Virus record (IMG/VR): IMGVR_UViG_3300047564_001761
Location: 1 to 55,313 of that record
DNA length: 55,313 nucleotides
Reading direction: 5' to 3' (one strand)
From: a virus
Taxonomy: Duplodnaviria; Caudoviricetes
A model generated the notes under the pieces. It was not told the DNA's origin, searched no databases, and saw only the letters and a program-made list of their open reading frames with translations. Positions 1 to 15,857 of the stretch are shown in pieces. Position 1 is the stretch's first letter; each line of letters starts with the position of its first letter. A program made the position numbers and the translations under genes.

Positions 1-32
1 TGCTGTTCCAAAAGCACGACTAGAAACCTTAT

Positions 33-347: not shown

Positions 348-555
348 TTGCTCTGGACCTAGCCTATTAAGTATTTGTCAGTGGATAATAAATAACGTAG
401 AGTCTAAAGATTACTATCAGCTAGAATTATTTAATTACTCTGTAGAGCACAGGTGGATACCTAATGAAGATAGGTTACACAAAGAGGAGTATTTTACTTT
501 ATTTCCGTATGAATCAGCGGTTAATTATGTTCGGTCTTACGAACAGACTTCTTAG
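337..555 (+). CDS. hypothetical protein
   Basis: ORF track; coupled to upstream ORF. Confidence 0.55.
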   Translation: MARDCSGPSLLSICQWIINNVESKDYYQLELFNYSVEHRWIPNEDRLHKEEYFTLFPYESAVNYVRSYEQTS

Positions 556-829
556 CTGTATTGTGTTCGATTCTGTTAACAGCATCACGAAGACTTGAAC
601 CGTTATTGGTGAATAGTTCGTGTTTGATGGTTGTAATTTCTTGTTCAATTTTCTCAAACCTTTCGTTACCTTCTTTAAGTCTTTCTACAACACCTGGATT
701 ATCTTCTGTGCCATTCCAGTCTTCAATGAATTTGAACCAAGTCTTGAATAGCTTAAAAAACTTGTTAAATATATAAATAAGCGCTGAAAAAGCAGCGCCT
801 ACAAGTACGATCCATTCAAGAATATTCAT
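521..829 (-). CDS. small membrane protein (N-terminal TM helix + coiled coil; actinophage lysis-associated type)
   Basis: hydrophobic N-terminus WIVLVGAAFSALIYIF; C-terminal NNGSSLRDAVNRIE motif resembling actinophage membrane proteins. Confidence 0.65.
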   Translation of the reverse strand: MNILEWIVLVGAAFSALIYIFNKFFKLFKTWFKFIEDWNGTEDNPGVVERLKEGNERFEKIEQEITTIKHELFTNNGSSLRDAVNRIEHNTAKKSVRKTEHN

Positions 830-909
830 GATAGTATAAGTATATATTAGTATTTATTATGATATAAGAAAAAATTAAATATTTTTTTATTTTACACGCT
901 TATTCTTAG

Positions 910-939
910 TTGACAAGAATTTATGTGTTAGTGTATAAT
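910..939 (+). promoter_or_regulatory. consensus sigma70/SigA promoter for tRNA operon
   Basis: TTGACA(910-915)-N18-TATAAT(934-939), 14 nt upstream of tRNA-Met. Confidence 0.85.
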
Positions 940-953
940 ATACATTACAACAA

Positions 954-1028
954 CGCAGAGTAGAGAAGCTCGGTTATCTCGTCTGGCTCATAACCAGAAG
1001 GCCACGGGTTCGAATCCCGTCTCTGCTA
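954..1028 (+). tRNA. tRNA-Met(CAT), initiator-like
   Basis: acceptor CGCAGAG/CTCTGCT with 1:72 mismatch; anticodon arm TCTGG-CTCATAA-CCAGA; T arm ACGGG-TTCGAAT-CCCGT. Confidence 0.92.
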
Positions 1029-1048
1029 CTAATCCTGTAGTGGGGGTT

Positions 1049-1112
1049 AAATGACCTATCAGATGTCATTAAACTGGGTAAAATGACCTGAGCACGTCTA
1101 TGTAAACTGCTC
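1049..1112 (+). ncRNA. two tandem small H-type pseudoknot candidates
   Basis: AATGAC-CTATCAGAT-GTCATT-AAACTGGGTA and GAC-CTGAGCAC-GTC-TATGT-AAACTGCTC; same motif recurs at 13319 and 13624. Confidence 0.55.
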
Positions 1113-1114
1113 TC

Positions 1115-1184
1115 TATCGTGGGTACTGGGTACGGATTGGTCTCCAAAACCGATCTTGCAGAGTTCGATTCTTTGACACGGTGC
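1115..1184 (+). tRNA. atypical or degenerate tRNA-Trp(CCA)
   Basis: anticodon arm TTGGT-CTCCAAA-ACCGA; T arm CAGAG-TTCGATT-CTTTG; D arm reduced to GTAC-TGG-GTAC; weak acceptor stem. Confidence 0.65.
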
Positions 1185-1385
1185 AAACAGAGGAGCGACG
1201 GCAACTCTGGAATATGACTGAACGAAGTCTTTTGTCAGCAAGGGATGAGTAAGGTACACTGGGGGATTAGCGTCCTGATCTTAGCGGGTCTAACTGGTGG
1301 TCGGATGAAAGCGTATATCATACAATGGTATTGTTGACTTATCCGTGGTGGTAAAAGGCAATCCACCTATTCACAATAATTATAA

Positions 1386-1420
1386 AACCCTGCATTAGCC
1401 ATTACAATGCAGGGCTTTAT
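1386..1420 (+). terminator. stem-loop, probable intrinsic terminator
   Basis: CCCTGCATT...AATGCAGGG followed by T-rich tract. Confidence 0.6.
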
Positions 1421-1425
1421 ATTTT

Positions 1426-1499
1426 GCTCTAGTAGTCCAATTGGTAGAGGCGCATGTCTTAGCAACATGATGTTGTAGGTTCAAGTCCTACCTGGAGCA
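1426..1499 (+). tRNA. tRNA-Leu(TAG) with short variable arm
   Basis: acceptor GCTCTAG/CTGGAGC-A; anticodon arm CATGT-CTTAGCA-ACATG; T arm GTAGG-TTCAAGT-CCTAC. Confidence 0.8.
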
Positions 1500-1502
1500 C
1501 TA

Positions 1503-1531
1503 TTGACAACTTCACATTAATTTATTATACT
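1503..1531 (+). promoter_or_regulatory. SigA-type promoter, leaderless transcript
   Basis: TTGACA-N17-TATACT then 6 nt to ATG at 1538. Confidence 0.8.
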
Positions 1532-1537
1532 TAAGTA

Positions 1538-1744
1538 ATGATCAATATGGATATTCCAGACCCATTTGATACATTTGTGTCAAAAAAATATAGGAACTAT
1601 ATTGGTTCAAAGTATGACTTTTTTGCAAGGGAATGGGCTATGAATTGCGGGTGTTGCAACGAAGAGCTTTTTGCAAAAACAAGGAAGATGCTTGTTAAGA
1701 TAAGGCTATATCATACTAGAAATGAATGTATGGGTGGATACTAA
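1538..1744 (+). CDS. hypothetical protein, Cys/His (possible Zn-binding)
   Basis: ORF directly after promoter; CGCC...H..NEC. Confidence 0.7.
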   Translation: MINMDIPDPFDTFVSKKYRNYIGSKYDFFAREWAMNCGCCNEELFAKTRKMLVKIRLYHTRNECMGGY

Positions 1745-1834
1745 TGAACTGTAATAAATGCGGTATGGACAAAGAACACATTGAATATTGGGATACCCAT
1801 CAAACCATGAGTGACTATAAGGTGTGGTGCAAGA

Positions 1835-2245
1835 ATGGATCTTGAATTAGGTCAAATGTTACTAAGCAATAATGATTGGCACAAATACGATTGTTATTGG
1901 GCATCAGATGGATTAAATTTGATTGCAGAGGTAATTGCTGAGTTGCGTGGAGAGCAGTACTCTACTTATGGATGGAATGGATTGCTTACATCTAATTCAG
2001 GTTCAGAAGAATACATAAATGATGTATTTGAGATGCGACCTTATTGCTGGTGTGGTATGGTGTGGGAAGAAGATCCAAATCACCCGCATGCTCAGGGTTG
2101 TCCTCCAAACTTTTTATACAAGCCAAACGGAATGATAATTACATGGTACAAGCATGCAGCTCGTGGAGCAACTTCAAATAAAAAATATCCAGGGGCCAGA
2201 ACTTGGTTTGAAATAGTTAAGCATTGTATTGGGAGTATAGAATGA
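1835..2245 (+). CDS. hypothetical protein
   Basis: ORF track 1811..2245; ATG at 1835 preferred (overlaps stop of 33-aa ORF 1744-1845). Confidence 0.7.
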   Translation: MDLELGQMLLSNNDWHKYDCYWASDGLNLIAEVIAELRGEQYSTYGWNGLLTSNSGSEEYINDVFEMRPYCWCGMVWEEDPNHPHAQGCPPNFLYKPNGMIITWYKHAARGATSNKKYPGARTWFEIVKHCIGSIE

Positions 2246-2418
2246 CAGATCAGATAATTAGGCTTCTTTCTGTTATTATTAATAATGAAATTCAAAGGGA
2301 TCAATGGATGAATGGTTATAATCATGCCTTTAAGATGTCACCTGTTGAAATGATTAAGGCGGGAAAAGAAGAAGAAGTAATAAAATATTTAATGTATCAG
2401 ATTGAGGGTCCATACTAA
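2242..2418 (+). CDS. stand-alone Xre/MbcA/ParS antitoxin toxin-binding-like domain
   Basis: W-M-x3-N-x-AF-x2-SP-x-EMI-x2-G-x4-V-x2-YL pattern recalled from this family; ATGA coupling. Confidence 0.55.
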   Translation: MTDQIIRLLSVIINNEIQRDQWMNGYNHAFKMSPVEMIKAGKEEEVIKYLMYQIEGPY

Positions 2419-2609
2419 TGACACACGATGAGATGATGCTAAGAATAGCACAGCTATCTATTACACCTGAAACTAATGTGGTTCCAAGCGAATTAGCAAC
2501 TGCTTTGATGGCAGTAGTTGAATATATTAGACCCAATGACTGGGACTTTACTGATGAAAAGTATAACAAGACAGAGATATTTAAGATTATTGAAAGGCAT
2601 CTAAAATGA
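2418..2609 (+). CDS. hypothetical protein
   Basis: ORF track; TAATG coupling. Confidence 0.65.
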   Translation: MTHDEMMLRIAQLSITPETNVVPSELATALMAVVEYIRPNDWDFTDEKYNKTEIFKIIERHLK

Positions 2610-2881
2610 GCAAAAAGAAAATTGATCGCCCAGAATATATAATTAAGGTTAATCGTGACTGGAGATATGGCAAGAGAGCCAGATTCTGGGATATTCAAAA
2701 GTGGTATCAAATGGGTGCAGGTCCAGAAGACGGATATTGGGGAAATGCTTGTAAGGGTGGTCTAGCATATACTGAGTGGGGTATGTGGTGGGCTATTAAA
2801 AGAAGGCTAAAGAAGATGCAGCTTGGATATAGCAATACCTATTTTAATTTAGATAAGTCTAAAATAAAAGACCTATTGTAA
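2606..2881 (+). CDS. hypothetical protein
   Basis: ORF track; ATGA coupling. Confidence 0.65.
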   Translation: MSKKKIDRPEYIIKVNRDWRYGKRARFWDIQKWYQMGAGPEDGYWGNACKGGLAYTEWGMWWAIKRRLKKMQLGYSNTYFNLDKSKIKDLL

Positions 2882-2926
2882 AATTTGCTATAAAATGATA
2901 TACTATTAAAAACAGAAAGAAGTAAA

Positions 2927-3223
2927 ATGATTAAACCTATGGGTGCAAACCTTTTAGTAAAGAAGATTGATTCAGTAGATAGAACTACTAAGAGTGGGCT
3001 AGTAATCTCAGCAGCCCTTACAGACAGTGATTTAACACAGGCTACCGTAATCCTAGTTGGGGACGGAGAGCAGAACTACCTTGGAGATACCATCAAGGTA
3101 GACTATATTAGTGTTGGGGATATCATCTATTACGCAGAGCGTAATGGTACAGAGATCGAAGATTTCGATACCAATGAGAAGTATTATCTAGTAAATGCCA
3201 AGAATGTCATGGCAAAGCGATGA
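2927..3223 (+). CDS. groES: co-chaperonin GroES (Cpn10)
   Basis: IKPMGANLLVK, mobile loop TTKSGLVI, VILVGDG, VGDIIYY...GTEIE. Confidence 0.9.
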   Translation: MIKPMGANLLVKKIDSVDRTTKSGLVISAALTDSDLTQATVILVGDGEQNYLGDTIKVDYISVGDIIYYAERNGTEIEDFDTNEKYYLVNAKNVMAKR

Positions 3224-3372
3224 CCCAGAAGCGTCACCAGAAGCAGCTAAAGCGTAGAAAGAATAAGCAGAAGGACGAACAGCACTACATGATGCGTGAG
3301 TATCGTCGTATGGCCCAGTACATGTTCGGCCAGGCTATGAAGGGTCAGGAAGAGGCTAAAAGTGAGCAGTGA
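3220..3372 (+). CDS. small basic hypothetical protein (50 aa)
   Basis: read manually; ATGA overlap with groES. Confidence 0.55.
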   Translation: MTQKRHQKQLKRRKNKQKDEQHYMMREYRRMAQYMFGQAMKGQEEAKSEQ

Positions 3373-3521
3373 GCGGCTGGAAGAAGGAATTACCCTATTT
3401 TATGATGACGGCATCCTATGGAAGGGTGCTGTATTGTATAAGGGAAGATACTACTTTGATGACATTGGAAGCGAATCCTTCATGGATGAATTAGAGTTTA
3501 TGGATGAATGGTCAGGCCTAA

Positions 3522-3713
3522 ATGCGAATTAAATTCTTTGCTGGGGTATGGGATTCATGGGGTATAGAAGTCTCATATTGCCACTGGTATAGAGGCTTTA
3601 CAATAGCTCTGATCCACTGGTATTTTGGCTTTGAAATCTGGACTAAAGAAGAAGTAGAGATTGCTTCAGAAGTAAGACGTAAAATGACAGAAGAAGAGTT
3701 TTCAGAAGAGTGA
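3522..3713 (+). CDS. hypothetical protein
   Basis: ORF track. Confidence 0.55.
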   Translation: MRIKFFAGVWDSWGIEVSYCHWYRGFTIALIHWYFGFEIWTKEEVEIASEVRRKMTEEEFSEE

Positions 3714-3775
3714 GCCGAAAACAGAAGCCCCGTCCAGAACTGGACCTAAATAAAGAGAAACTTAAGGATAAATAA

Positions 3776-4096
3776 ATGGGATATTGGTCATGGATACTGG
3801 CTGTAATAGGCGTTACAGGCATATTTTTGGTAGGTAAGAAAACTCTCTACGGATGGTTAATTCTCCTACTCAATGAATGCATCTGGATCGCCTATGCATT
3901 AGCTACTGACCAGTACGGTTTTATCGTTATGGCTACCGCCTATGCTCTAGTCTATATTAAATCATATAGGGCCTGGCGGAAAGAGGAAGAATCCAATAAA
4001 GTACGTAATAGAATAAAGGATAAGGTACTCAATAAGGATAAGTATGTCCCAGAGGGTAAATATCCAGAGAAATATGAAATTTTGACGGAGCTATAG
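3776..4096 (+). CDS. PnuC-like / 3-TM half-transporter membrane protein
   Basis: three hydrophobic segments, WSWILAVIGVTGIFLVGKK...GW...W...QYG; AAGGA RBS. Confidence 0.6.
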   Translation: MGYWSWILAVIGVTGIFLVGKKTLYGWLILLLNECIWIAYALATDQYGFIVMATAYALVYIKSYRAWRKEEESNKVRNRIKDKVLNKDKYVPEGKYPEKYEILTEL

Positions 4097-4098
4097 AG

Positions 4099-4290
4099 AT
4101 GTTTAATCTCAGAGGAATACCTACTCCTATATGTCCTTGTTGTCAATCTAGCCTATTACGGGTTACTGTACAGTTTGATCAGGATACATATGATATTGTA
4201 GGATATCTTCTAGATGATGCAGAGTGTATGGAATGTAAATGCTTAATTACTGCTCCAACTCCATTAGATCATCCTGAATATAGCCCATAG
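4099..4290 (+). CDS. small Zn-ribbon protein (actinophage type)
   Basis: RGIPTPICPCC...AECMEC...TAPTPLD; GGAG RBS. Confidence 0.7.
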   Translation: MFNLRGIPTPICPCCQSSLLRVTVQFDQDTYDIVGYLLDDAECMECKCLITAPTPLDHPEYSP

Positions 4291-4324
4291 AAGGCTTATA
4301 GAGCTATCGCTCTGCTTGTGCCAA

Positions 4325-4350
4325 GAGGGGGAATATCCATTCCCCCTTTT
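4325..4350 (+). terminator. intrinsic terminator ending rightward block
   Basis: AGGGGGAAT-ATCC-ATTCCCCCT followed by TTTTT. Confidence 0.75.
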
Positions 4351-4392
4351 TGCCATTTCTAGAGCCAAATAACAGGGTTTTAGAGGCATATC

Positions 4393-4990
4393 TGTGGATA
4401 ACTTGTGGATAACTATATAAAGAAAATTAATAAATAACTAATGTTTATATATGTTATAGTTATATGGGTAATAGCGCATATCAAAATATGAGACGTAATG
4501 TCAAATTTGGAGGGATAAAATATCAACATATGAGACCTATCATATTTGGAGAGACTTGTCAATAACTTGACCATATATATCTCATTATATGAGACAATAT
4601 TCCCGTGATTTTTGGGACTCATCGTAATGTTTTTTTGCATAAAAAATCCCAAATTTCACGGAGAAATTGGGATAAAATAGATTATAATTATATTATTTAA
4701 ATAGTTTTTCTAGAATTCTTTCAAGAAATATAAGCAGCTTATTAGACCTCTTATCTGTATAGTGCATAGGTTGTTTATATAGGTTAGAGAAGTATCTACG
4801 TGGCATTATTATTCCTCCTGCCGCCGTTCGGCGGCGGTGATCCAGAAGATCACCTTACTCCTAGTATAGTACATAGAATAATACCTTGTCAAATTCCCGT
4901 GATTTTTTAGATCATGTCGTAATGTCTAAATTATATAGATAATACTTATCCACAGAGATATCCACAGGTTGTGGATAAAGTTGTGGATAA
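4393..4990. promoter_or_regulatory. DnaA-box cluster flanking AT-rich non-coding island
   Basis: TGTGGATAA at 4393, 4404, 4970, 4982; TTATCCACA at 4946; ATATCCACA at 4958. Confidence 0.85.
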
Positions 4991-5047
4991 CTTTTATCAA
5001 ATTTATTCCCCAAATTCCAGTGATTTTTATCATGTTGACGTAATGTC
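4599..5047 (+). repeat. three imperfect ~33-37 bp direct repeats
   Basis: ATTCC(C/A)GTGATTTTT...CGTAATGT at ~4599, ~4892, ~5011. Confidence 0.75.
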
Positions 5048-5120
5048 ATTTATTTGATATGCTGCATTTTATATGCCGCACACAAACCCCAGCTTTGTCA
5101 AGCTGGGATCGTGCGTTATA

Positions 5121-5492
5121 TTATGCGTTTTGCGGGATACGGAATCCTAGTTTATCTAAGAGCTCTTGCCCCAAATGATACTGGCAGAATTCCTCAAATG
5201 AATGCCCGTCGATTTGCTTATTTACCATATCAATTTCTACAGTAAAGTCCCATAGATTTGTATTCTCTGGGTCCACCGCAAATAAACCAAAGCCCGTTTC
5301 TGAATTCCAGTCTTCGTTAATTAATTGGCTTACGATAATACGGGTTGCATAGGATGCATCGTTCCACCGTGGCTTTGCCATCCAGATTGCATGTGCGATT
5401 GATGACTCCCATTCAGTCTCGCCCCAATGTGAATATAGGGCCACTGCCTGAGATGTGCCATCGTTGAATACGTAATTGATACGTGCTCCCAT
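5121..5492 (-). CDS. hypothetical phage protein
   Basis: ORF track; AAGGAG RBS. Confidence 0.8.
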   Translation of the reverse strand: MGARINYVFNDGTSQAVALYSHWGETEWESSIAHAIWMAKPRWNDASYATRIIVSQLINEDWNSETGFGLFAVDPENTNLWDFTVEIDMVNKQIDGHSFEEFCQYHLGQELLDKLGFRIPQNA

Positions 5493-5495
5493 AAT

Positions 5496-5777
5496 TTATT
5501 CTCCTTGTTGTAGTGGGTTTGCCTTGAAGTATTTCTTCAATTCATTGTATGCTCCTACGATGTAGGAAACTGCGCTATCGTTTTTCTTTACTGTGATGTG
5601 TCCAAGTGCTGAGCCAATTGCGTAGGCAGTACCTAAATCATTAGCCTCATGTACAGGCTTGCCCTTATCACCAAGATAAGCAACCATGACCATAACACGA
5701 TAGCAGAGTGTGTTTAATTGTAGTTCGCCATCGGCTTCGTTAGCCCATGCCTGGATTTCGTTACTGATTGTAGTCAT
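5496..5777 (-). CDS. hypothetical protein
   Basis: ORF track; operon coupling. Confidence 0.7.
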   Translation of the reverse strand: MTTISNEIQAWANEADGELQLNTLCYRVMVMVAYLGDKGKPVHEANDLGTAYAIGSALGHITVKKNDSAVSYIVGAYNELKKYFKANPLQQGE

Positions 5778-6114
5778 CTAGATTAACCGCTTTCTCATCG
5801 TATTTGTAATTGGACCATTGTACTACAGGTGGCTCGTAGTTGTCAAGAATATCCTTGCCTGGACCCTCGTCTAGGACTATGGTATCTATCACACTGGCTA
5901 CCTCAACTGTATCGTTGTCTTTATTGTGGTAGTTATAGTATTTGAAATCAACTCCCCAATACTTTATCATTGTTAGAAATAGTTTCATTATTCGCCGCTG
6001 GACATTTGGTGGTTGCTTCATCACGTTCATGGCAAAGTCTGAGTCTTGGAATCTAATATCTGAAATTGAATCTACTAACTTTTCTACCGCCTTCTCTTCA
6101 TCTCTCTTAGCCAT
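5761..6114 (-). CDS. hypothetical protein
   Basis: ORF track; TTGACA...TAGAAT promoter and GGGAG immediately upstream. Confidence 0.75.
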   Translation of the reverse strand: MAKRDEEKAVEKLVDSISDIRFQDSDFAMNVMKQPPNVQRRIMKLFLTMIKYWGVDFKYYNYHNKDNDTVEVASVIDTIVLDEGPGKDILDNYEPPVVQWSNYKYDEKAVNLDDYNQ

Positions 6115-6180
6115 AACTCCCTATTCTACTAAAAATATGTGGGGGTGTCAAGTACCCACCCCCACCGCTATTAAATTATA

Positions 6181-6315
6181 TTACTTAGTGTTTGGTGCTT
6201 CAAAGACCTTACCTTCGGCCTCTGCATTGCGTAGTGCTTCTACCTGAGCACGTGTGAAACGTCCTCGTGCCCCAACTAGAAATCCTAGTTGCTCTAGATA
6301 TTCACGCTTTGTCAT
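6181..6315 (-). CDS. Lsr2-like DNA-binding domain microprotein (44 aa)
   Basis: manual translation MTKREYLEQLGFLVGARGRFTRAQVEAL..., RGR AT-hook-like motif; AAGGAG RBS; own promoter upstream. Confidence 0.65.
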   Translation of the reverse strand: MTKREYLEQLGFLVGARGRFTRAQVEALRNAEAEGKVFEAPNTK

Positions 6316-6394
6316 CCGCATTCTCCTTTTTGTTAGTTTGTGCTAATCCTACCACCATGATAGGAAACCTGTCAAGCTGTCTCATAATTTGAGA

Positions 6395-6784
6395 CTACTC
6401 TTCCTCTTCTCCGTCATACTCTTCGATAATGCCTTCATCAAGCATCCAGTCCCGTACAGCCTCGTACAGGTCCTCTGTCCCGTATTCCAGTGTGAACCCG
6501 TTCTTGTCCGCCTGTGTGAAGAACAGTTCCCACATCTCTTCTTCATCCATAGTTACGTTGTAATCAGGATCTCCGCCTTCACGGATGTCTTTTAAAATAG
6601 TTATTGCTACATCCCAAGTCCATACCCAAACCAGGGGCGGGAATAAACGAAGTTCCCCTATCTTATCAATGATTATATTGATATCACGGAATGTATCCTG
6701 CATGCGTGTTTTTTCCTGTAGATCCATATCAGTCTTCGTACCCATCAAAATACCCCTCTGCCCATAGGCCTTGTAAGAAATCAT
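6395..6784 (-). CDS. acidic hypothetical protein (start may be 6745)
   Basis: ORF track. Confidence 0.7.
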   Translation of the reverse strand: MISYKAYGQRGILMGTKTDMDLQEKTRMQDTFRDINIIIDKIGELRLFPPLVWVWTWDVAITILKDIREGGDPDYNVTMDEEEMWELFFTQADKNGFTLEYGTEDLYEAVRDWMLDEGIIEEYDGEEEE

Positions 6785-7054
6785 GAGCCATAACTAAATA
6801 GTTATGGATAGCAGGATTTTCATCAGCATTGACTAATAAGTCTGCTTGATAAACTCCATATGTCATATCTGCTAGATCCTTCTGTGTATAACCTAGCATT
6901 ATTCATTCCACCAATACTTAACAATTGTGTTTAAAGTAGTATGAATATGGCAGTCACAATCTTCACCGCCCATATTCTCGTGGAATTCTATATGAGAATA
7001 ATTATCCTCGTATATCTCGTTAACTAGTTCTTCGATAGTTCTCATGCCTGCTCC

Positions 7055-7588
7055 TTAGAAGTGGAAATCAACTGGGACGAGGAATTGTAGCATGGCGGTC
7101 TCAGGCTTGTCAAGTCTTTCCCGTAAATATCTCAAATCCGCAGTGTATTCCTTTTTGTCAAAGAAGGCGGAGTCAGGTATCCATTCGCCTGACATTAACT
7201 TACACATAGTATTAATATAGTAATTGTTAAAATCAAATCGGCTGTCGTCAGGTAGTTCTCCACTGTTACTAATATACTCAACAATGTCAGAGGTAAACTT
7301 ATCTAACTTTATCTTAGTTAGATATTGGTTGGCATTCTCAATACGATACTTAACAATACCGTCAATTATCTTATTAAACTCTTCAGGCTTTTCTGCATAT
7401 GAGATAATCATATTGGATGAATCTTCATATTGTGATTCAGACCAGCGACCACCGCCGACAACATGCCAGTCAGACCAATCGCAATTTCTAAATCCTGTTT
7501 CTTCTGACGGCTCTAAGAATGCCTGAACATCTGAGAAGGCCTCTTCCATATCTTGTGCTTCAACCGCAATGTAGTGGAGTGTGTGCAT
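7055..7588 (-). CDS. hypothetical phage protein
   Basis: ORF track; WSDWHVVGGGRW and terminal VDFHF motifs; promoter upstream. Confidence 0.8.
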   Translation of the reverse strand: MHTLHYIAVEAQDMEEAFSDVQAFLEPSEETGFRNCDWSDWHVVGGGRWSESQYEDSSNMIISYAEKPEEFNKIIDGIVKYRIENANQYLTKIKLDKFTSDIVEYISNSGELPDDSRFDFNNYYINTMCKLMSGEWIPDSAFFDKKEYTADLRYLRERLDKPETAMLQFLVPVDFHF

Positions 7589-7624
7589 TTTCCTGTGCTT
7601 TCTATTAGTTTATCGTAATGGGTA

Positions 7625-7680
7625 ATTCTACCATGCGGGACTGACATCTGTCCAGCCCAGCCAGTGTGATTAATATCACA
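7625..7680 (-). promoter_or_regulatory. promoter with perfect CRP-type box
   Basis: minus strand TGTGATATTAATCACA-N10-TGGACA-N18-TAGAAT. Confidence 0.75.
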
Positions 7681-7683
7681 AAG

Positions 7684-7896
7684 CTATGCGAAGATCGACC
7701 AGCCCTGGAAGTCTCCCTCATCCACGACATAGCGCTGAACGGCAGACCAAGCGGACTCCCCGTAGAAATACTTAGGGCGCTTGTTGGGGACGGTAACCTT
7801 GAAGAAACAATTATCTTCGTTGGCCTCGTATACGTCAATTGCTGTGTCCCCGTTATAAATAGGGAACCAGGTTACAGAATTTACTTTAGGTTTCAT
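7684..7896 (-). CDS. hypothetical protein, leaderless
   Basis: TTGACT-N18-TAGAAT-N6-ATG on minus strand. Confidence 0.75.
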   Translation of the reverse strand: MKPKVNSVTWFPIYNGDTAIDVYEANEDNCFFKVTVPNKRPKYFYGESAWSAVQRYVVDEGDFQGWSIFA

Positions 7897-8130
7897 GGCT
7901 GTATTCTACCACCCCGCATAGCCGTGAGTCAAGTTTGATCCCCGTAATGTGATCAAAGTCACAGGGGCCGCACCAGCTTTATAAAAAGCAGAAGGGCCAG
8001 GTCCCCCAACCTGGCCCCTCATGTAGGCATTCCCATATTTAACGACTTGGCGAAGCCTGACAGCCGTACCTACATCATCACCACTTACGTGATACATACT
8101 ATTTTACTTGACTGAAATAAATCTGTCAAG

Positions 8131-8349
8131 TTACTCCCACTTTAGTGTGTATCCCTTTACCCTAATGTTTCTGCCCATGTTAAACTTCTTCACGGCCTCT
8201 GATACAACTGCCTTGTCTTCATATTTAGTTATTGCTATGAAGTTATCAATTGCATCGCTGGCGGTGATACCCGCAAACATAAGATTGTTATTCTTACGAA
8301 TAATCCAAGCCATTAGAACTCCCCGTTCTCTAACATGGTAATAAGCCAT
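8131..8349 (-). CDS. hypothetical protein (start likely 8313)
   Basis: ORF track; GGGGAG before second Met. Confidence 0.6.
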   Translation of the reverse strand: MAYYHVRERGVLMAWIIRKNNNLMFAGITASDAIDNFIAITKYEDKAVVSEAVKKFNMGRNIRVKGYTLKWE

Positions 8350-8469
8350 TCGATTGCTTCTACCAATTCGTCGTCTATTGTTTGTTCTGCTTTTTCTGCC
8401 AATTGTTCTACAAGATCCTCACGAGATTGCTTGTAGCCATCGTGCCAGCCAGATGTGTAGTCTGACATA

Positions 8470-8697
8470 TTACTCCTTTTGATATGGATGATTTGGTTCG
8501 TACTCTGACAAATAAGTTTCTTTTAAACTGTACTTGTCTCTAATACGTGAGACCTTCTCAATGCTACCAGTTCCAATGTTGAATGTCAACGGGGGCATGA
8601 ACTCAGGGTCCAGCCCATTAATCTCAGCCTCCCAATAGGCCCTCTCAAGAGAGAGCCTATCAGGAGCGGTAAGTTCAAAATACATTATGCGTTCCAA
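8470..8697 (-). CDS. hypothetical protein
   Basis: ORF track; operon coupling. Confidence 0.65.
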   Translation of the reverse strand: MERIMYFELTAPDRLSLERAYWEAEINGLDPEFMPPLTFNIGTGSIEKVSRIRDKYSLKETYLSEYEPNHPYQKE

Positions 8698-9371
8698 TCA
8701 ACGTCGTGGTCTTCAACGGACCAGGAATCAACTGAGACGTCACCATGCCATGAATCAATACTTAGATTGTCACTTAAGAAGTAACGGGCATCGAAATCTT
8801 CTACTTCTTCAAGTGGGATATCGTAGTCTACTTCAACCTGAATAGTTGCAGTAATACGCACTGTTTGCTTTGGCTCGTGCCCAAGAATCTCGCAAAGGTC
8901 GTTTAGAACTTCTACCTTCTCATAGTTTGGGTTATACCAACCGTCAGCGTTTAGGTTATCAATAATGCTATTGACCTGTGTCTGAAGATTATTTAATCTA
9001 GTAGTTAACAACTGATTCTCATGAAGTTGATATTCTAAATCAACAGTCTTGATACTTGGGTAAATTGCCTCACCGTTGACGATAGACTTATATGTAATAA
9101 GACTATTAGGATTGTAGGTCTCAGGGACCGTTGGTGTTAGAATTGGTTCGTACTGATTTTCCATTTGATTACTTTCTGCTTGTAGGGACGAAGGCGCTAT
9201 TGTAGCACTTTCGGATGAGATATGCAACATATCTCGCCCACATGGACATGTGAGCTTTACCACACCAGATGGGAATCCAAACCCATCTGATGTAGTTACT
9301 TCGATCATAGTATCACACTCATCTGGGTCACAGATGAATGTGTACTTGCTAGAGATAATGTCAGACATCAT
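8685..9371 (-). CDS. hypothetical protein with N-terminal Zn ribbon
   Basis: CDPDEC...CPCG; ATGA coupling. Confidence 0.75.
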   Translation of the reverse strand: MMSDIISSKYTFICDPDECDTMIEVTTSDGFGFPSGVVKLTCPCGRDMLHISSESATIAPSSLQAESNQMENQYEPILTPTVPETYNPNSLITYKSIVNGEAIYPSIKTVDLEYQLHENQLLTTRLNNLQTQVNSIIDNLNADGWYNPNYEKVEVLNDLCEILGHEPKQTVRITATIQVEVDYDIPLEEVEDFDARYFLSDNLSIDSWHGDVSVDSWSVEDHDVDWNA

Positions 9372-10132
9372 GCATCTACCTTATCTACTAGAGACTTATG
9401 GATTTCGCATTCTGCCATTGCCTCTTCATCTTGCCATGAACCTTCGTTACATTCAGAGCAGAATTCACCGCATTCATTATCGCAGTAAGATAATGTATCA
9501 AAAGATTGGCAGGCGTAGCAACGATTCTCCCATTCTGCTAATTCTTTTACTTCACCACGTAGAATCTCATACTCTCCACCCCAGCCAGTTTCTTCTTCAA
9601 ACTCTAATGTGAGAAGAGAGTTGGGAACTAAGTTAGATAGTTTAGTTAGAACTGTGACGGCAGGAGACCAAGCAGTCTCATACTTATAAACAAGCCAGTT
9701 ATCCTCACCCTCTGACTTGTGTTCAACCAACTCAGTATTAGGATATTCATCCTCATCACGAACTGCTACATCCCACTTGGTTCCCCAGTTAGTATGATTC
9801 CAGTTATACCAATCCTTTTGAGTCTTAGCAAACTCGACGGACTTAGCAAACCAACTAGGGTCTTTCATATCTACACCATCACGAGCAGGCTGGCAGGCAT
9901 ACTCTTCATCAGTAATACCAGCATCCTTATATGAATAGATATTATGAAAAGCAAAGACAGGATTGTTGTATTCAACCTGAGTAATCTTAGTTGGGAATCC
10001 CATAGAACTAATATCACCCATGCCAAACGTTTCCTGCGCTAGTGTAAACGGACGGTTAAGTCTTTCTTTGATAGAATCAATCTCAGACTTAGGACCTTGG
10101 ATTGTTAATGTATTATATACCCAGTTTGGCAT
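9368..10132 (-). CDS. DUF1281/YubB (Api92-like) ferredoxin-like domain protein with Cys-rich tail
   Basis: MPNWVYNTL, WYNWNHTNWGTKWD, ETAWSP motifs. Confidence 0.75.
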   Translation of the reverse strand: MPNWVYNTLTIQGPKSEIDSIKERLNRPFTLAQETFGMGDISSMGFPTKITQVEYNNPVFAFHNIYSYKDAGITDEEYACQPARDGVDMKDPSWFAKSVEFAKTQKDWYNWNHTNWGTKWDVAVRDEDEYPNTELVEHKSEGEDNWLVYKYETAWSPAVTVLTKLSNLVPNSLLTLEFEEETGWGGEYEILRGEVKELAEWENRCYACQSFDTLSYCDNECGEFCSECNEGSWQDEEAMAECEIHKSLVDKVDA

Positions 10133-10165
10133 ATTATTACCTTTCGTAGTAGGAGGGGGCTTATT

Positions 10166-10600
10166 CTACACTGTTGCGACGGCGTTGTCAAGAACCATCT
10201 TGGATTGCCATAGCATACAGTTAGAATCTAAACGGTCACCGAATATACGTATATAATCAGCGATATCTTCTGTTTGATCAGTTAAGCAGGACTTCACGGT
10301 TTCTACTGAAATAAACACACGTCCATTCCATAGACCCATTGCACCTATATTAGTAGGAACTTCTAGGCAACCATATGTATCTTGCTCCCAGCCAACACCT
10401 TCTGAACAAACAAGGGCGTACTTATTATCACCGAAGACATTCTTTTCTTCAAGTGTAATCAGTAATAGATTATCTACTGTGCATTCGCTAAAGTCATTGC
10501 CATATTGTAAGCGATAGATATCATTAGCAATTGTAGCCAGTTTCTTTCCGTCCACAATTTGTCCAACATATCCGTTCATTCGTGATGCTCTGCGGTCCAT
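10166..10600 (-). CDS. hypothetical protein
   Basis: ORF track to 10789, but GAAAGG RBS and promoter support ATG at 10600. Confidence 0.7.
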   Translation of the reverse strand: MDRRASRMNGYVGQIVDGKKLATIANDIYRLQYGNDFSECTVDNLLLITLEEKNVFGDNKYALVCSEGVGWEQDTYGCLEVPTNIGAMGLWNGRVFISVETVKSCLTDQTEDIADYIRIFGDRLDSNCMLWQSKMVLDNAVATV

Positions 10601-10802
10601 ATATTTCCTTTCGATAAGGGTGAATTTTACCATTCTGCAGGGACCCGTGTCAAATCCGTGATGCCCGTAATAGACCCGTAATATGTGATTTTGAGCACAA
10701 ATGGTGCCGCCCCATTTTTTCAGCTTTGTCAAGTGCAACACGATCATGAAATAAAAAAAATACGGGAGCGAATTTCTTCGCCCCCGCATCTTTTATTTTT
10801 TA

Positions 10803-11822
10803 TTATGCGATTTGCATAATTCCCTTAACCACTTTTAGCAAGCGATTTTTTTCTGCGTTGATTTGTGCATCAAATCCTGATGCAGATGCAAGGATAGATT
10901 CGTTAGAACCACCACGAGCAGAGCGGTGCCAGTCAAGGCGTTCAGTAAGTGCATTAAACGCACCCCAAGCAGTTCCAGCAATCATGCCGTTAAACTCGCC
11001 TGTGTAAATATCGTTGAGAGTATCAACTTTATTTGTCCATTTGGTGATTGCGTTCTTTGCTTCACCCTTTGGCTTTGGATAAGCAGCGAGAATGATGTCG
11101 TTGAATTCCTGAGCGGTGACTTCCTTCTCATATAGAGAATTAGCCAACTTTGAGAATTCGTCCATGTATGCATTAGCAAGACCAAGAGTCTCACGTGCAA
11201 CTTGAATTTTTCCTTCTGCTGTTTGTGTGTGGCGAATCTTGAAAGATTGCTTAACGCCACCCTTCTTACGACCAACACCATTAAGTGCAAGGTTTAGAGT
11301 ATTAGCGCACACAACACGAACGGGAGTAATAGATGCCTGAATAGCAATAGACCCGTCATGAGATGTGTTGATGAGCAAATAAGTCTTCACCTTATCTGCT
11401 ACGCCCTGAGCGTCAATAACCGCTTCACGTTCAAGAGCAAGAGAGCCGAATACAACACGCCCTCCACGAATAGAGCCAGCAGTTTCCCAGCGTCCTCCAC
11501 CATCTAGAATGTTATCGCCGAATGAGAATAAATCTTCATTCTGCAATGGTACATAACGCTGACCAACTACGCCGAGAACGTCTGTTTGAGATGCGTCGGT
11601 AGGATTGGTACGCACTACGTACTGATATGATTTATCAGATGAGAGGTGATTTGGAATTTCCAAATCTTCAAGGCGAACGTTCCACCCGTCAAGATTTGCG
11701 AGAGATAGCATTTCGCCAGTAGTTACTTCATTTGTAAATACTGTTCCGAGACCATGCCAAGCAGGTTCTCTGAATGATGCGAATGAGGTTTTGCCATTTT
11801 GATTTTCTAGGTCGTGAGCCAT
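10803..11822 (-). CDS. DUF932 family phage/plasmid-like protein
   Basis: PAWHGLG, ETAGSIRGGR, YLLINTSHDGS, TPVRVVCANTL, IRHT, GTAWGAFNA. Confidence 0.88.
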   Translation of the reverse strand: MAHDLENQNGKTSFASFREPAWHGLGTVFTNEVTTGEMLSLANLDGWNVRLEDLEIPNHLSSDKSYQYVVRTNPTDASQTDVLGVVGQRYVPLQNEDLFSFGDNILDGGGRWETAGSIRGGRVVFGSLALEREAVIDAQGVADKVKTYLLINTSHDGSIAIQASITPVRVVCANTLNLALNGVGRKKGGVKQSFKIRHTQTAEGKIQVARETLGLANAYMDEFSKLANSLYEKEVTAQEFNDIILAAYPKPKGEAKNAITKWTNKVDTLNDIYTGEFNGMIAGTAWGAFNALTERLDWHRSARGGSNESILASASGFDAQINAEKNRLLKVVKGIMQIA

Positions 11823-12276
11823 AGTTTTCCTTTCGATTGTTTGAAGAGCCTATTTTAGCACAACCACCCCAGCGGAGTCAATTCATCTTAGTTAAATGTC
11901 CGAATTATCCTAGTATTTCCCGTGTGTTTAAAATCACACCCGTAAAACTTGACAAGATCAGTTTTTGGGGGCGGCACAGCTCAGGCTATTTGTCAATAGC
12001 CAAAGCGTCTTGCCATTCTGTGTCGTCTATTTTTGGCGTAGGGATAGATAATAAATTAACTATAACAGCAATTGGAAGAATAATAAAATAAATTACCAAC
12101 ACAACTGCAATTAACACGCCAAAGAAAGTGCCCATACCGTAGTAGAAATCCATTGCGTTATCCTATCACATTTTTTAGTCGTTGTACAATTGGCAGGTGA
12201 CACACGCACTCGCACACATAGTAATTATTTTGTTTACAATCATTGCACATATAATCAGATCTACACTGCCAGCCCA

Positions 12277-12999
12277 TTATTTTTTACTCGCAGAGAATCT
12301 AACATCGGCCTTACCATAAACACACAATCCGCATGATACGCAGGCGGACCCATTGCTAGAGATAAGAGGAATTTTCTTTAGGTTCTCAGGACACTTAGCG
12401 CCAGGCTTACCGATTAATTCTTTCATCTTGCTTTCAGTAGCGGCGAAAGTCTTACCTAGATATGCAAGACGAATACCCTCATAGTTAGTGCGTAAGTCTT
12501 CCGCAATTTCTGCATTCTCATCGTCGGTAGAATAGTAAAGAGATAGGTTTTCAATACCCTTAAGCATAATAGCAGCGGACTTTACACGTGTATATACCCA
12601 GAATTGAACATCGGGATGATTAAGAATAACATGCTTCCAGGCGAATGTATAAGTATCGTTAAAGAAATCTCCGTCCCAGTGGATACGGAATAACTTATCT
12701 GCCTTACGCTTATCGCAATCTTTTTTGAAGTCTTCGATCATTTCCATGAGTAGCGCTTCCATAGTATCATGGTCGGCGTCTTTTAATAATTCCCAGTTAT
12801 GTAGAAGAGTAGCCTTTACTCCCTTATAGACTTTTTCCAATTTGCCTGCATAGCAAACAGTCTCGCAGATAGACGTAGCACCAGGACATGAATAGGCTTT
12901 TCCTGCAGGTAATCCGAAGGTGTTGGCAATTGTTGGGGTTTTTCCATTAGGGGAGACGGCATTAGTTACTTTCCTATCATTAGAGCGCTTCAGTTTCAT
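12277..12999 (-). CDS. mycobacteriophage gp88-like protein (Cys-rich, Fe-S candidate)
   Basis: SCPGATSICETVCYA, FRIHWDGDF, WVYTR, C-terminal CP...CVSCGLC. Confidence 0.75.
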   Translation of the reverse strand: MKLKRSNDRKVTNAVSPNGKTPTIANTFGLPAGKAYSCPGATSICETVCYAGKLEKVYKGVKATLLHNWELLKDADHDTMEALLMEMIEDFKKDCDKRKADKLFRIHWDGDFFNDTYTFAWKHVILNHPDVQFWVYTRVKSAAIMLKGIENLSLYYSTDDENAEIAEDLRTNYEGIRLAYLGKTFAATESKMKELIGKPGAKCPENLKKIPLISSNGSACVSCGLCVYGKADVRFSASKK

Positions 13000-13046
13000 T
13001 AGGGGCCTTTCTTAGTGGGGGTGTAATTCTAGCATACTGCAGGGGT

Positions 13047-13181
13047 TTAATCAAGTTTATTAGCGTGTTTCTTTTTCCTAGTATAAACTTTCTTACTAGG
13101 AATAGCGGTAGCGCAATTGCTACGTCGTAGCTCAAGCACACGGCGTAATTCCTCACGGGTTTTCCTAGTTTTAGTAATCAT
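13047..13181 (-). CDS. small basic protein (44 aa), leaderless
   Basis: manual translation MITKTRKTREELRRVLELRRSN...; TATTAT-N6-ATG. Confidence 0.6.
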   Translation of the reverse strand: MITKTRKTREELRRVLELRRSNCATAIPSKKVYTRKKKHANKLD

Positions 13182-13318
13182 GCCGTAATAATAGCAGAAA
13201 TTCCAGCGTTAATCAAATCCTACCCGTAAGTAGCTCTGTGAGATTGATCACAGGTGCCGCAATTTTTTCAAGGGAAATGCCCCGCTAGAAAGAAAGGTAA
13301 CTAACGGGGCAAGATTGT

Positions 13319-13344
13319 GAGCAGTTTTGGCTCTTGCTCAGGAG
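13319..13344 (-). ncRNA. small pseudoknot motif copy
   Basis: CTC-CTGAGCAA-GAG-CC-AAAACTGCTC, just before terminator-like hairpin at ~13277-13311. Confidence 0.55.
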
Positions 13345-13421
13345 GTCTGCGTCTTTAGGTCGGCAGTAACCTTGCTCTATAGTATTTTTATTATCGCCCT
13401 AATCAGCCTGGCGAATATTTT

Positions 13422-13592
13422 TTACTTGCTTGTTTTCACCATTGCAAAACGGCGAGAACCATTAGCGAGAATTAGATTTACACGAGTAACCTTATTGCTA
13501 ATTGGAGAGAAGTTAGCAATACGACCTGTAACACCTGTCTTTGATGTTGTGAAAAGGTCTCCGATTTGATAAGTGTATCCGCCAAGAGTCAT
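13422..13592 (-). CDS. small hypothetical protein (56 aa), paralog of 14162-14308
   Basis: manual translation ...IGDLFTTSKTGVTG...; GAAAGG RBS. Confidence 0.7.
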   Translation of the reverse strand: MTLGGYTYQIGDLFTTSKTGVTGRIANFSPISNKVTRVNLILANGSRRFAMVKTSK

Positions 13593-13623
13593 TTATTTAT
13601 TTCCTTTCAGTAGTGGGTTGGTT

Positions 13624-13650
13624 GAGTAGTTTAGCGACATACTCAGGTCG
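13624..13650 (-). ncRNA. small pseudoknot motif copy
   Basis: CGAC-CTGAGTAT-GTCG-CT-AAACTACTC. Confidence 0.55.
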
Positions 13651-13658
13651 TAGATTAT

Positions 13659-14075
13659 TTAGAGATACTTAGCAATTTGCTTCATGGTTGAAGCATTTAC
13701 TGTTTCCTCATCTGTCATCTTTAGAATTGTGAGAGCATTTGTGATGTCCTCTACAATTTCATTGTATGTGTGCTGGTGCATAATTGTGAAATCACGCTCA
13801 GGCTCTTTAGGGAAATCGGTTTCCTTTACAATCAAATCAAAATCAACATTAAGAGAGTTGTTCCAAGAGCGATAAGATGTGCGGAAGTTTTCAGCCTTCT
13901 TGATGTTTGCAATAGCAAAATCTTGAACTTCCTTACGCCACTTTTCTCTTGACTTCTCATACTTTGCTTCGTTTGCACCCTGCTCAGCATAGTCTTTCTT
14001 GATTGTTGCCAACTTTGTTTCCAAAGCCTTGATTACCTTTGGTGTTGCCACCTTTACTGTGATTGCTCTGCTCAT
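13659..14075 (-). CDS. hypothetical protein
   Basis: ORF track; AGGA RBS; promoter at 14111-14140. Confidence 0.8.
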   Translation of the reverse strand: MSRAITVKVATPKVIKALETKLATIKKDYAEQGANEAKYEKSREKWRKEVQDFAIANIKKAENFRTSYRSWNNSLNVDFDLIVKETDFPKEPERDFTIMHQHTYNEIVEDITNALTILKMTDEETVNASTMKQIAKYL

Positions 14076-14161
14076 GTTATTCCTGTTCTTTTAGTGGGTT
14101 ATTAGGGAGTATTTTAGCAGATGGGCTGAACTATTGTCCAGCCCACCCGCTGTGATTTACA

Positions 14162-15243: not shown

Positions 15244-15250
15244 ATTTTAG

Positions 15251-15841: not shown

Positions 15842-15857
15842 TCGAACAGATGTTCGA
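15842..15857. promoter_or_regulatory. LexA (SOS) box, actinobacterial consensus
   Basis: TCGAAC-AGAT-GTTCGA. Confidence 0.7.

Follow-up and report, generated by a model that had tools for sequence, protein, structure and literature searches.

A compact pseudoknot at the 3' ends of cistrons in phages and bacterial mobile elements: a candidate boundary module

Introduction

What is the role of an RNA pseudoknot of about 27 nucleotides (nt) that recurs behind stop codons and in front of a transfer RNA (tRNA) in one tailed phage? The question is raised by the virus record IMGVR_UViG_3300047564_001761 of IMG/VR (Duplodnaviria; Caudoviricetes), whose 55,313 nt were analysed as a whole and are called the window here. 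A preliminary description of this stretch had reported a repeated H-type pseudoknot with covarying stems. The motif proved to be real, but its scope had been underestimated, for it is not special to this phage and is spread over mobile elements of many phyla. Its fold, strand, placement rules and breadth are documented below. With regard to function, we tentatively read it as a cis-acting 3'-boundary module of the cistron, which would cap, protect or insulate the upstream RNA; this reading is held with somewhat less than even confidence.

The fold type is classical. Within the reach of our searches, neither the family nor its breadth or placement rule has been described. No description of the motif was found in the literature searched, although the supplementary lists of two papers (PMC10690425, PMC5737381) may contain it. 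The former reports 10,006 candidate phage RNAs, including one that was found 27 times and once overlapped a tRNA-Asp prediction (PMC10690425), and the accessible part of the Minerva preprint does not describe the motif. Few RNA motifs so small (~27 nt, ~17 near-invariant positions) are conserved over 15 or more bacterial phyla, the carriers in this case being phages, prophages, conjugative-element-like regions and chromosomal genes.

Copies in the window

The pattern CTGAGYA-N5-14-AAACTRCTC matched the window three times (1088-1112 on the plus strand, 13319-13341 and 13624-13646 on the minus strand, belonging to copies A, B and C, respectively) and never in 100 dinucleotide-preserving shuffles. 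A covariance model trained on 99 copies from other viral contigs, in which the first helix (P1) was the sole modelled helix, scored copy C at 42.5 bits (E 3.6e-11), copy B at 37.9 bits (9.3e-10) and copy A at 29.3 bits (4.1e-07), and the remaining window at 9.4 bits or less (filters off; 12 matches listed at E<=10). These are the three sites named in the preliminary description, and its stems were recovered as well, namely GAC/GTC, CTC/GAG and CGAC/GTCG for P1, and for the second helix (P2) GAGCA/UGCUC twice and GAGUA/UACUC once. Further candidates at 6242, 2087 and 3359 were dropped, as they comprise only 5' or 3' halves within coding sequence.

A variant beside copy A had also been counted as a member. 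Its hairpin AATGAC/GTCATT is present, but its membership did not hold up (9.0 bits, E 0.76 with the covariance model). The loop-tail pairing is of 3-4 base pairs (bp) in a shifted register, and a third loop (L3) of 3 nt would have to span a 6-bp stem. The variant and the adjoining copy A have AAATGACCT...GTC...TAAACTG in common, and tandem pairs of the knot are present in related contigs too. Judging from its letters, we read the variant as a decayed tandem duplicate of copy A and not as a working member.

Fold and covariation

The consensus NNNC-C-UGAGYA-N-GNNN-NN-AAAC-URCUC(A) describes a compact H-type pseudoknot of ~27 nt. P1 is of 3-5 bp with a near-invariant closing C-G pair, L1 is a single C (C0), P2 (UGAGYA/URCUCA) is of 5-6 bp, L2 is of 1 nt and tolerates insertions, and L3 is an A-rich stretch of 6 nt, NNAAAC, ending in AAA(C/A). 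Contacts of L3 with P1 and of L1 with P2 are predicted. Base counts were taken from 106 unique copies with a 7-nt gap, the C of CUGAG being numbered 0. Pair 1 of P1 is C(-1)-G8 in 102/106; pair 2 is formed in 103/106, nearly always as A-U or U-A, and pair 3 in 104/106 with any pair type, followed by pair 4 in 79/106 and pair 5 in 36/106, a level which we take to be chance.

Pairing in P1 is upheld by compensatory change. In the 99-row alignment, 94.1% of the P1 cells are paired against 79.3 +/- 0.8% in shuffles, none of 500 shuffles reaching the observed value; covariation scores 0.402, compared with 0.127 in shuffles and at most 0.103 for slid partners, and double changes occur in 37, 59 and 49 of the 99 sequences at the three pairs. 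P2 joins (U1)G2A3G4Y5A6 with U18R19C20U21C22(A23), where the free pair Y5/R19 is CG in 67, UG in 23, UA in 12 and CA in 4 of the 106 copies. Relaxing single blocks of the pattern in the same loci returned almost exclusively canonical forms. With a descriptor that puts no constraint on the P2 sequence, 122 canonical copies were recovered, and six with other, fully paired P2 sequences (GGACA/UGUCC twice, AAGCA/UGCUU twice, AAAUA/UAUUU once and the wobble form GGGCA/UGCUC once), against two unrelated matches in reversed sequences. The covariance model gave 142 matches at E<=1 in 100 viral loci; among the 26 inspected, which were picked for low score or misfit to the pattern, were GGGCA/UGCCC, the paired insertion GAGCCA/UGGCUC and a subtype ...AAAA-GGCUCA in 5 copies. 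Hence the pseudoknot with covarying stems is borne out by double changes in P1 and by compensated variants of P2. It is also an RNA-level element, as had been proposed, since the motif follows the strand of its flanking genes and contains G-U pairs that would be C-A mismatches on the opposite strand.

In the second subtype, AAAA-G stands in place of AAAC-U (...AAAAGGCUCA) and the pair A6-U18 is lost. It was found at L060:3326-3352, L060:3676-3702, L118:4522-4548, L017:11344-11379 and L101:1973-2008 and in 11/31 copies attached to the small reading frame discussed below; both subtypes coexist within the same phage. Insertions in L2, at the P1-P2 junction, may comprise 9 nt or a whole hairpin (L100:6624-6674, L038:9986-10029), and since such copies still score 31.7-35.7 bits, L2 appears to point outward. 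The flanks of the knot are G-poor, and no further conserved hairpin was found near it. A helix closing the knot, between the A-rich 5' and the U-rich 3' flank, received no support (mean -2.26 kcal/mol against -2.03 to -2.32 for permuted partners). Position +23 is A in 73/106, and no conserved positions were found beyond +24. Two resemblances to tRNA, which are no more than resemblances and possibly chance, may be recorded. P2 with its flanking As (GAGCA/GCUCA; 1090-1094/1108-1113 in the window) equals the commonest tRNA D-stem, GCUCA...GAGC[AG], present in 21/112 tRNAs of the loci examined, and the loop C-U-GAG-Y-A resembles an anticodon loop, C32-U33-NNN-R37-A38.

Distribution over phages and bacteria

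The motif is not specific to a phage lineage. At least 119 loci in viral contigs carry the exact pattern, and 108 of the 148 pattern matches in the listed viral loci have the same 7-nt gap, where chance would distribute them evenly over 10 gap lengths. Several viral loci hold 3-4 exact copies, and with the relaxed descriptor up to 8 were found in ~5.5 kilobases (kb; L118). A scan of bacteria with a stricter pattern and one genome per prokaryotic species gave at least 118 loci in 15 or more phyla, mostly in prophage or mobile-element settings, against an estimated ~70 chance matches in the prokaryotic collection; 114 of the 122 bacterial matches listed keep both inner P1 pairs, for which chance would give ~14%. 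By record title, the hosts include Saccharibacteria, other candidate-phyla bacteria, Aminicenantes, Lachnospiraceae, Lactobacillaceae, Bacteroidia, Actinomycetota, Anaerolineae, Calothrix, Thermodesulfobacteriota, Polynucleobacter, Brucella, Omnitrophota, Atribacterota, Spirochaetota and Akkermansia. Five of the listed bacterial genomes carry 1-2 copies each.

Among Lactobacillaceae, the pattern is present in 32 of 401 species genomes (36 matches; 0 with a reversed-pattern control), and such patchy presence fits carriage on prophages. A Lacticaseibacillus prophage locus matches one little-studied phage. In five Lactobacillaceae prophages (L140, L191, L197, L201, L189), the knot lies between the minor-head and scaffold genes and is followed by a U-tract and then by a structured leader of 50-70 nt, which ends at the ribosome-binding site of the scaffold gene and contains conserved pieces such as UAUGCCUUG or a GCGGG...CCCGC hairpin.

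Placement behind stop codons and before tRNAs

Most matches (114/125) are intergenic. Of these, 92 share the strand of the upstream gene, 11 lie opposite to it and 11 have no such gene found; for the downstream gene the numbers are 98, 8 and 8, in agreement with the earlier statement that the copies lie on the transcribed strand. In 159 of 216 unique copies, a frame of at least 50 codons ends within 60 nt upstream. Counted from the stop codon to position -4, the spacer measures 5 nt in 28 copies, 6 nt in 22, 7 nt in 14, 8 nt in 13, 9 nt in 11 and 10 nt in 7, with a long thin tail; a spacer of 4 nt was found in one copy and of 1-3 nt in none, and nine stop codons overlap the knot, six of them being its own UGA. 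Measured to the real base of P1, the spacer is 4 nt in 6, 5 nt in 18, 6 nt in 26 and 7 nt in 18 copies. In some 60% of cases P1 thus starts 5-10 nt past the stop codon, and the distribution breaks off sharply below 4-5 nt. The distance from the knot to the next start codon is far wider (6-906 nt), and this combination of tight stop spacing with wide start spacing implies that the knot is left-justified in the intergenic space. By ribosome footprint and helicase positions, a structure that starts 4-5 nt past the A-site codon is the closest one that needs no unwinding by the terminating ribosome.

The relation to tRNAs is one-sided. A same-strand tRNA starts 3-13 nt past the knot in 16 copies (Asp in 11, mostly of one phage lineage, Arg in 2, Ser in 2 and Trp in 1, the last being that of the window), and none among the copies lies less than 50 nt downstream of a tRNA. 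Cleavage by RNase P at such a tRNA would therefore leave the knot with a tail of at most 13 nt.

Uridine tracts are enriched behind the knot. At least 5 T occur in the following 9 nt in 56/237 copies (24%) against 10/237 and 17/237 at control positions, and at least 6 T in 35/237 against 2 and 6; the tract is missing after 76% of the copies, and the 'hairpin' formed by P2 would have a loop of 11-13 nt, where an intrinsic terminator has one of 3-8 nt. Terminator-like hairpins within 70 nt downstream showed no enrichment (30/233 against 21/233 controls). Hence a position just before a terminator, which had been noted earlier, is no general rule, although copy B does precede a hairpin.

A small gene that ends in the knot

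A small stand-alone gene has the knot at its end in Aminicenantes, Thermodesulfobacteriota, Anaerolineae, Omnitrophota, Actinomycetes and others. This gene has a strong Shine-Dalgarno sequence and an open reading frame (ORF) of 20 codons, M-K-R-[FY]-x-[VI]-P-R-[VI]-[AS]-H-C-x-x-G-C-x-x-x-S, whose stop is the UGA within CC-UGA-G, or one codon earlier in two cases (L156, L282), and a terminator often follows. There are 31 examples in all, 26 of them clean. From the GGN-UGY codons to the knot the distance is always 10 nt. In the 31 ORF-anchored copies, positions 17-18 are CU, AG, CG or UC, and all three changes in GCUC are C-to-U opposite G. Neighbours in three scanned loci (L148, L208, L222) are housekeeping genes for Fpg, PmbA/TldD, GH130 and an OPT transporter, and the peptide of 20 amino acids gave no match in Pfam or NCBIfam. 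The gene is unannotated and occurs in many anaerobe-rich phyla. A bacterial selenocysteine insertion element, suggested by the UGA at the end of the small ORF, was rejected: the ORFs of L156 and L282 stop one codon before that UGA, and later frames are not conserved.

The strongest case that the knot can interact with ribosomes during translation comes from the fixed 10-nt register. By our inferred geometry, the ribosome would first meet P1 when Cys16, the last conserved codon, is in the P site, so that the conserved part of the peptide would end where the ribosome meets P1. In an alternative reading of the whole family, the knot is directed at the ribosome: positioned at the mRNA entrance while the A site holds the upstream stop codon, it would modulate termination or recycling, or block sliding and re-initiation after termination, and so insulate neighbouring cistrons and downstream tRNAs from translation. 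The spacer peak at 5-7 nt past the stop codon suits this reading, being the spacing used by frameshift and readthrough pseudoknots. Luteovirus-type -1 frameshift knots (beet western yellows virus, potato leafroll virus) are of 26-28 nt, have an L1 of 1-2 nt and an A-rich L3, and lie 5-8 nt past the A-site codon; the short L1 and A-rich L3 of the motif repeat this architecture, and the anticodon-loop-like C-U-GAG-Y-A is paired to a CUC 'codon', which is again only a resemblance. The A-site codon of the motif is however a stop and not a sense codon, and unlike those knots the motif has no overlapping ORF, resides in DNA mobile elements of bacteria and is found in untranslated RNA as well. Copy A and others lie in such untranslated settings, and in ~40% of the copies the distance to a stop codon exceeds 10 nt. 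The UGA of the motif has no frame preference relative to the upstream ORF (39/62/49), and readthrough at copy C would add 21 codons before the next stop. A frameshift stimulator was dropped as a candidate, slippery heptamers (X XXY YYZ) being about as frequent 5-9 nt upstream (10/242) as at a control offset (8/242). We regard the ribosome-directed reading as rather unlikely.

Module edges and neighbouring genes

Homology blocks in blastn comparisons of the window with related contigs begin or end at knot edges: 13624-14067 in L041, 13623/4-13727 in L040 and L109, 13432-13651 in L107 and 13317-13420 in L060. The ORF of 138 amino acids upstream of copy C recurs together with that copy as a single homology block in related phages (ORF at 13659-14075 on the minus strand), and the contigs of relatives in RNA libraries diverge from the window at 13624, 13651 and 13655. 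The knot may accordingly be a junction for gene-cassette exchange. In this position it is like the promoter-early stem-loop (PeSL) cassettes of T4-type phages, which lie at module junctions. As a full account, a recombination linker or selfish repeat, kept by spreading with gene cassettes or by exchanging them and with a secondary RNA structure, would explain the divergence points at knot edges and the tandem and degenerate copies. It is very unlikely, however, when pairing is upheld by compensatory change in hundreds of copies over many phyla, and the strand bias together with the ribosome-footprint spacing indicates selection at the RNA level.

The genes beside the knot are diverse. Upstream ORFs (n=97) belong to phrog_1221 in 13 cases, phrog_871 in 7, minor-head or head-morphogenesis families in 1-2 each and the anti-restriction family phrog_2059 in 2; downstream ORFs (n=108) include head-scaffolding families (6 and 3) and integrase families (3 each). 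In bacterial genomes, upstream genes carry the Pfam domains DUF7249, DUF3768, ArdA and DUF2958, and we take genes of these four kinds to be typical of early or leading regions of mobile elements. Such neighbours would suit a decoy or binding site, in which the knot binds a conserved host or element factor (nuclease, ribosome, RNA polymerase or defence protein) in cis or, once excised, in trans. Likewise, several copies per genome are clustered among small early-type genes, P2 is near-invariant in sequence where P1 is free to vary, and a tRNA-flanked copy would come off as a small stable fragment; the D-stem likeness of P2 and its flanking As (21/112 tRNAs) also points this way. The idea leaves the strict placement past stop codons unexplained, and no co-occurring protein family was found among the immediate neighbours scanned. 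With 15 or more host phyla, the partner would also need to be universal, and we consider such a decoy quite unlikely.

Comparison with known RNA families

Rfam 15 returned only tRNA and manA for the whole window at the gathering threshold, and at E<=10 the motif was unmatched in 900-1600, in 13200-13750 and in the 51 nt of 13612-13662. The earlier statement that no named family applies is upheld by this comparison; covariation and strand bias were found and no Rfam family was matched, the three points on which the preliminary description had staked the motif. At 20 bacterial loci, cmscan at the gathering threshold found only tRNAs and ARAGORN only unrelated tRNAs, and a transfer-messenger RNA (tmRNA) or a part of a larger known RNA was dropped as a candidate for the bacterial copies.

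In size and fold, the motif resembles the preQ1-I riboswitch. This is a minimal H-type pseudoknot of ~30 nt, in which P1 is short, its loop pairs with the 3' tail and the tail, rich in A, runs along P1. A small ligand-sensing riboswitch of this architecture is nevertheless extremely unlikely. RF00522 and all other riboswitch models were unmatched at E<=10, and L2 lacks the conserved C of preQ1-I, is not conserved at all and accepts hairpin insertions. PreQ1-I sits by queuosine genes, whereas the motif has no gene association, occurs in up to 8 copies in ~5.5 kb, and hugs the upstream stop codon and not the downstream ribosome-binding site, besides lying before tRNAs. The context expected of preQ1-I, a 5' UTR of queuosine or preQ1 transport genes whose Shine-Dalgarno sequence or terminator overlaps the 3' strand, was likewise not seen, since downstream families are diverse and the 3' strand of P2, UGCUCA, is no Shine-Dalgarno sequence. 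The small ligand sensor listed among the earlier proposals is thereby disfavoured, and the exonuclease block, the processing signal and the protein-binding site of that list are kept as candidates.

The H-type knot of the T2/T4 gene 32 mRNA has a single L1 nucleotide that spans a stem 2 of 6-7 bp, followed by unstructured A/U-rich RNA, and is an operator in the 5' leader of one gene, bound by gp32; the motif, by contrast, is found beside many genes that are unrelated, and its position depends on where the upstream gene ends. The gene 32 knot is mentioned in PMC10690425. With intrinsic terminators and 3' stabilisers of the repetitive extragenic palindrome (REP) type, it has in common a structure at gene ends, which is however a pseudoknot of fixed sequence and not a GC-rich hairpin. 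Type III antitoxin RNAs (ToxI and the like) are pseudoknot units of ~35 nt that are linked to phage-host conflict and form tandem arrays beside a toxin gene of the ToxN/AbiQ type. The motif was not assigned to them, its copies being dispersed or at most paired and no toxin family being among the scanned neighbours, nor was it taken for a tRNA-like mimic of an RNase P substrate, as positions +24 to +26 are not CCA and ARAGORN calls neither tRNA nor tmRNA on it.

A processing signal is a further alternative. The knot would then be a self-cleaving ribozyme of very small size, or else a substrate mimic that is cut by an RNase found universally, such as RNase P, and it would punctuate polycistronic transcripts of mobile elements. 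Hammerhead, twister and pistol ribozymes have a similar distribution, being spread over many phyla and found in phages, in multiple copies, between genes and on the sense strand. In the pistol ribozyme, which is phage-associated in many phyla, the P1 loop engages a downstream strand in a pseudoknot, and ~10 or more nucleotides are invariant (PMC4604425). Similarly, the motif is phage-associated, multi-phylum and intergenic, with an A-rich linker between its P1 loop and the downstream strand that pairs with this loop. It has many invariant unpaired or junction nucleotides (C0, U1, A14-A16) and lies at module junctions. The pistol family itself does not include it, as the P2 and P3 stems and the GU cleavage junction are missing and RF02679 was unmatched, together with the other Rfam ribozyme families. 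We know of no natural self-cleaver as small as 27 nt. A ribozyme right before a tRNA would be redundant with RNase P, no conserved CCA was found after the knot, and positions 17 and 18 are variable (CU, AG, CG, UC), all of which makes a processing signal fairly unlikely. A bolder form of these ideas, in which the knot is a functional RNA class with an activity of its own, is given little credence here. One version is a self-cleaving ribozyme that would be the smallest in nature, the other an anticodon-stem:codon mimic that would engage a universal machine (ribosome or exonuclease), and in both the mobile elements of most bacterial phyla would use the knot as a 'full stop' between RNA units. 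A catalytic or ribosome-engaging knot would represent a new RNA class.

The knot as a 3'-boundary module

In all of its settings, the knot marks the 3' boundary of an RNA unit. Beyond it comes an element of another kind, be it a tRNA, a terminator, a U-tract or a leader that carries its own ribosome-binding site. A boundary module is favoured because it suits the left-justified placement, the occurrence on one side of tRNAs only, the U-tracts, the position at junctions and the universality of 3' exonucleases. Accordingly placed, the knot would lie nearest to the end of the upstream cistron that is compatible with folding while a ribosome occupies the stop codon, P1 beginning at about +11/+12 from the P-site codon, and it would cap the upstream RNA without leaving naked RNA between the last ribosome and the cap. 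The RNA would be cut or ended just past the knot, by RNase P where a tRNA adjoins, by endonucleolytic cuts in the spacer, which is G-poor and rich in A/U, or by termination at a U-tract. The folded knot with its short 3' tail may then shield the upstream segment from 3'-to-5' decay and hinder its misfolding with neighbours, and the outcome would be segment-specific stability inside polycistronic transcripts. We infer both the capping or protecting action and the nucleases involved.

If correct, capping or punctuation of this kind would explain differing expression levels in long operons without promoters or terminators, and would provide a portable 27-nt insulator for synthetic biology. Since the placement rule relative to the terminating ribosome is accurate to a single nucleotide, the function is directly testable. 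Irrespective of mechanism, the knot is useful as a gene-end marker in the annotation of phage genomes.

Several points weigh against the boundary module. Copy A lies between two tRNAs in an operon without an ORF, where protection of an upstream cistron makes no sense, and a cap seems redundant where a canonical terminator follows. The nested folding of the three window copies amounts to only about -6 kcal/mol, which is weak next to the usual 3' stabilisers, so that any block to nucleases would have to rest on the predicted tertiary contacts. P2 is paired yet near-invariant, which a mere barrier does not need and which hints at recognition by a partner; the invariance is partly by construction, as the loci were fetched by the exact pattern and most of P2 is set by it. 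Where the knot overlaps the stop codon of the 20-codon gene at a fixed 10-nt register, interplay with the ribosome is indicated. Genome compaction alone could account for part of the proximity to stop codons, and the placement counts depend on ORF calls by a crude longest-ORF script. The RNA data, finally, are assembled contigs from four metatranscriptome runs with relatives of this phage.

Surroundings in the window

The features of the window, together with the clean loci of the 20-codon gene, are collected in Table 1. The record is estimated to be 46% complete, and the DNA and RNA runs containing the stretch are labelled freshwater or lake water, with one exception labelled crustacean. Window genes match families of ribonucleotide reductase, baseplate-wedge connector, portal and carbamoyltransferase.

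Table 1. Features around the pseudoknot copies of the window, and loci of the 20-codon gene
Feature	Positions	Strand	Details
Sigma-70-type promoter match, TTGACA-18-TATAAT	910..939	+	12/12, consensus match only; heads the non-coding operon
tRNA-Met(cat)	954..1029	+	55 nt upstream of copy A
Degenerate tandem copy	1049..1080	+	6-bp hairpin AAUGAC/GUCAUU, then AAAC; pseudoknot doubtful
Pseudoknot copy A	1085..1112	+	P1 1085-1087/1096-1098 GAC/GTC; P2 1090-1094/1108-1112 GAGCA/UGCUC; loop CUGAGCAC 1088-1095; L3 UAUGUAAAC 1099-1107
tRNA-Trp(cca)	1116..1184	+	starts 3 nt past copy A; called by ARAGORN
manA RNA (RF01745)	1191..1377	+	63.9 bits vs gathering score 55.2
11-bp hairpin	13278..13311	-	7 nt downstream of copy B; then AUUUCCCUU
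Pseudoknot copy B	13319..13344	-	P1 13344-13342/13333-13331 CUC/GAG; loop 13341-13334; L3 CCAAAAC 13330-13324; P2' UGCUC 13323-13319
ORF of 56 amino acids	13422..13592	-	between C and B; start 31 nt past C, stop 77 nt ahead of B
Pseudoknot copy C	13624..13650	-	P1 13650-13647/13638-13635 CGAC/GUCG; loop CUGAGUAU 13646-13639; L3 CUAAAC 13634-13629; P2' UACUC 13628-13624
ORF of 138 amino acids	13659..14075	-	TAA 8 nt before copy C
Clean small-gene loci (1)			L126, L127, L134, L141, L155, L170, L172, L178, L182, L188, L194, L205, L208
Clean small-gene loci (2)			L220, L222, L257, L258, L269, L273, L292, L293, L309, L311, L318, L341, L344

The non-coding operon runs in the order promoter match, tRNA-Met, degenerate copy, copy A, tRNA-Trp, manA RNA and tRNA-Leu. 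The tRNA-Trp is below the threshold of the Rfam tRNA model and gave only a weak tRNA-Sec match of 19.6 bits. A 17-bp hairpin (1381-1421) lies between the manA RNA and tRNA-Leu in this operon (910-1531), and a second promoter match (11/12) follows the tRNAs at 1503-1531. The fourth tRNA of the window, tRNA-Ile(tat) at 18496-18571, is remote from the tRNA operon.

Copies B and C lie among ORFs of the minus strand. The hairpin downstream of copy B is terminator-like with a weak U-tract and did not pass the terminator scan; the segment 13350-13260 that includes it folds with a total of -25.7 kcal/mol. A megablast search with positions 1-20000 of the window found no phage record. At 10803-11822 on the minus strand, the window encodes a phrog_1221 protein of 339 amino acids, of unknown function and common to 574 phage records. 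It is ~53% identical to proteins of 130-kb Streptomyces phages, and a search with it gave only distant actinophages as named relatives. Its stop codon is not followed by the pseudoknot in the window, as it is in 13 related contigs, where a tRNA-Asp usually comes next.

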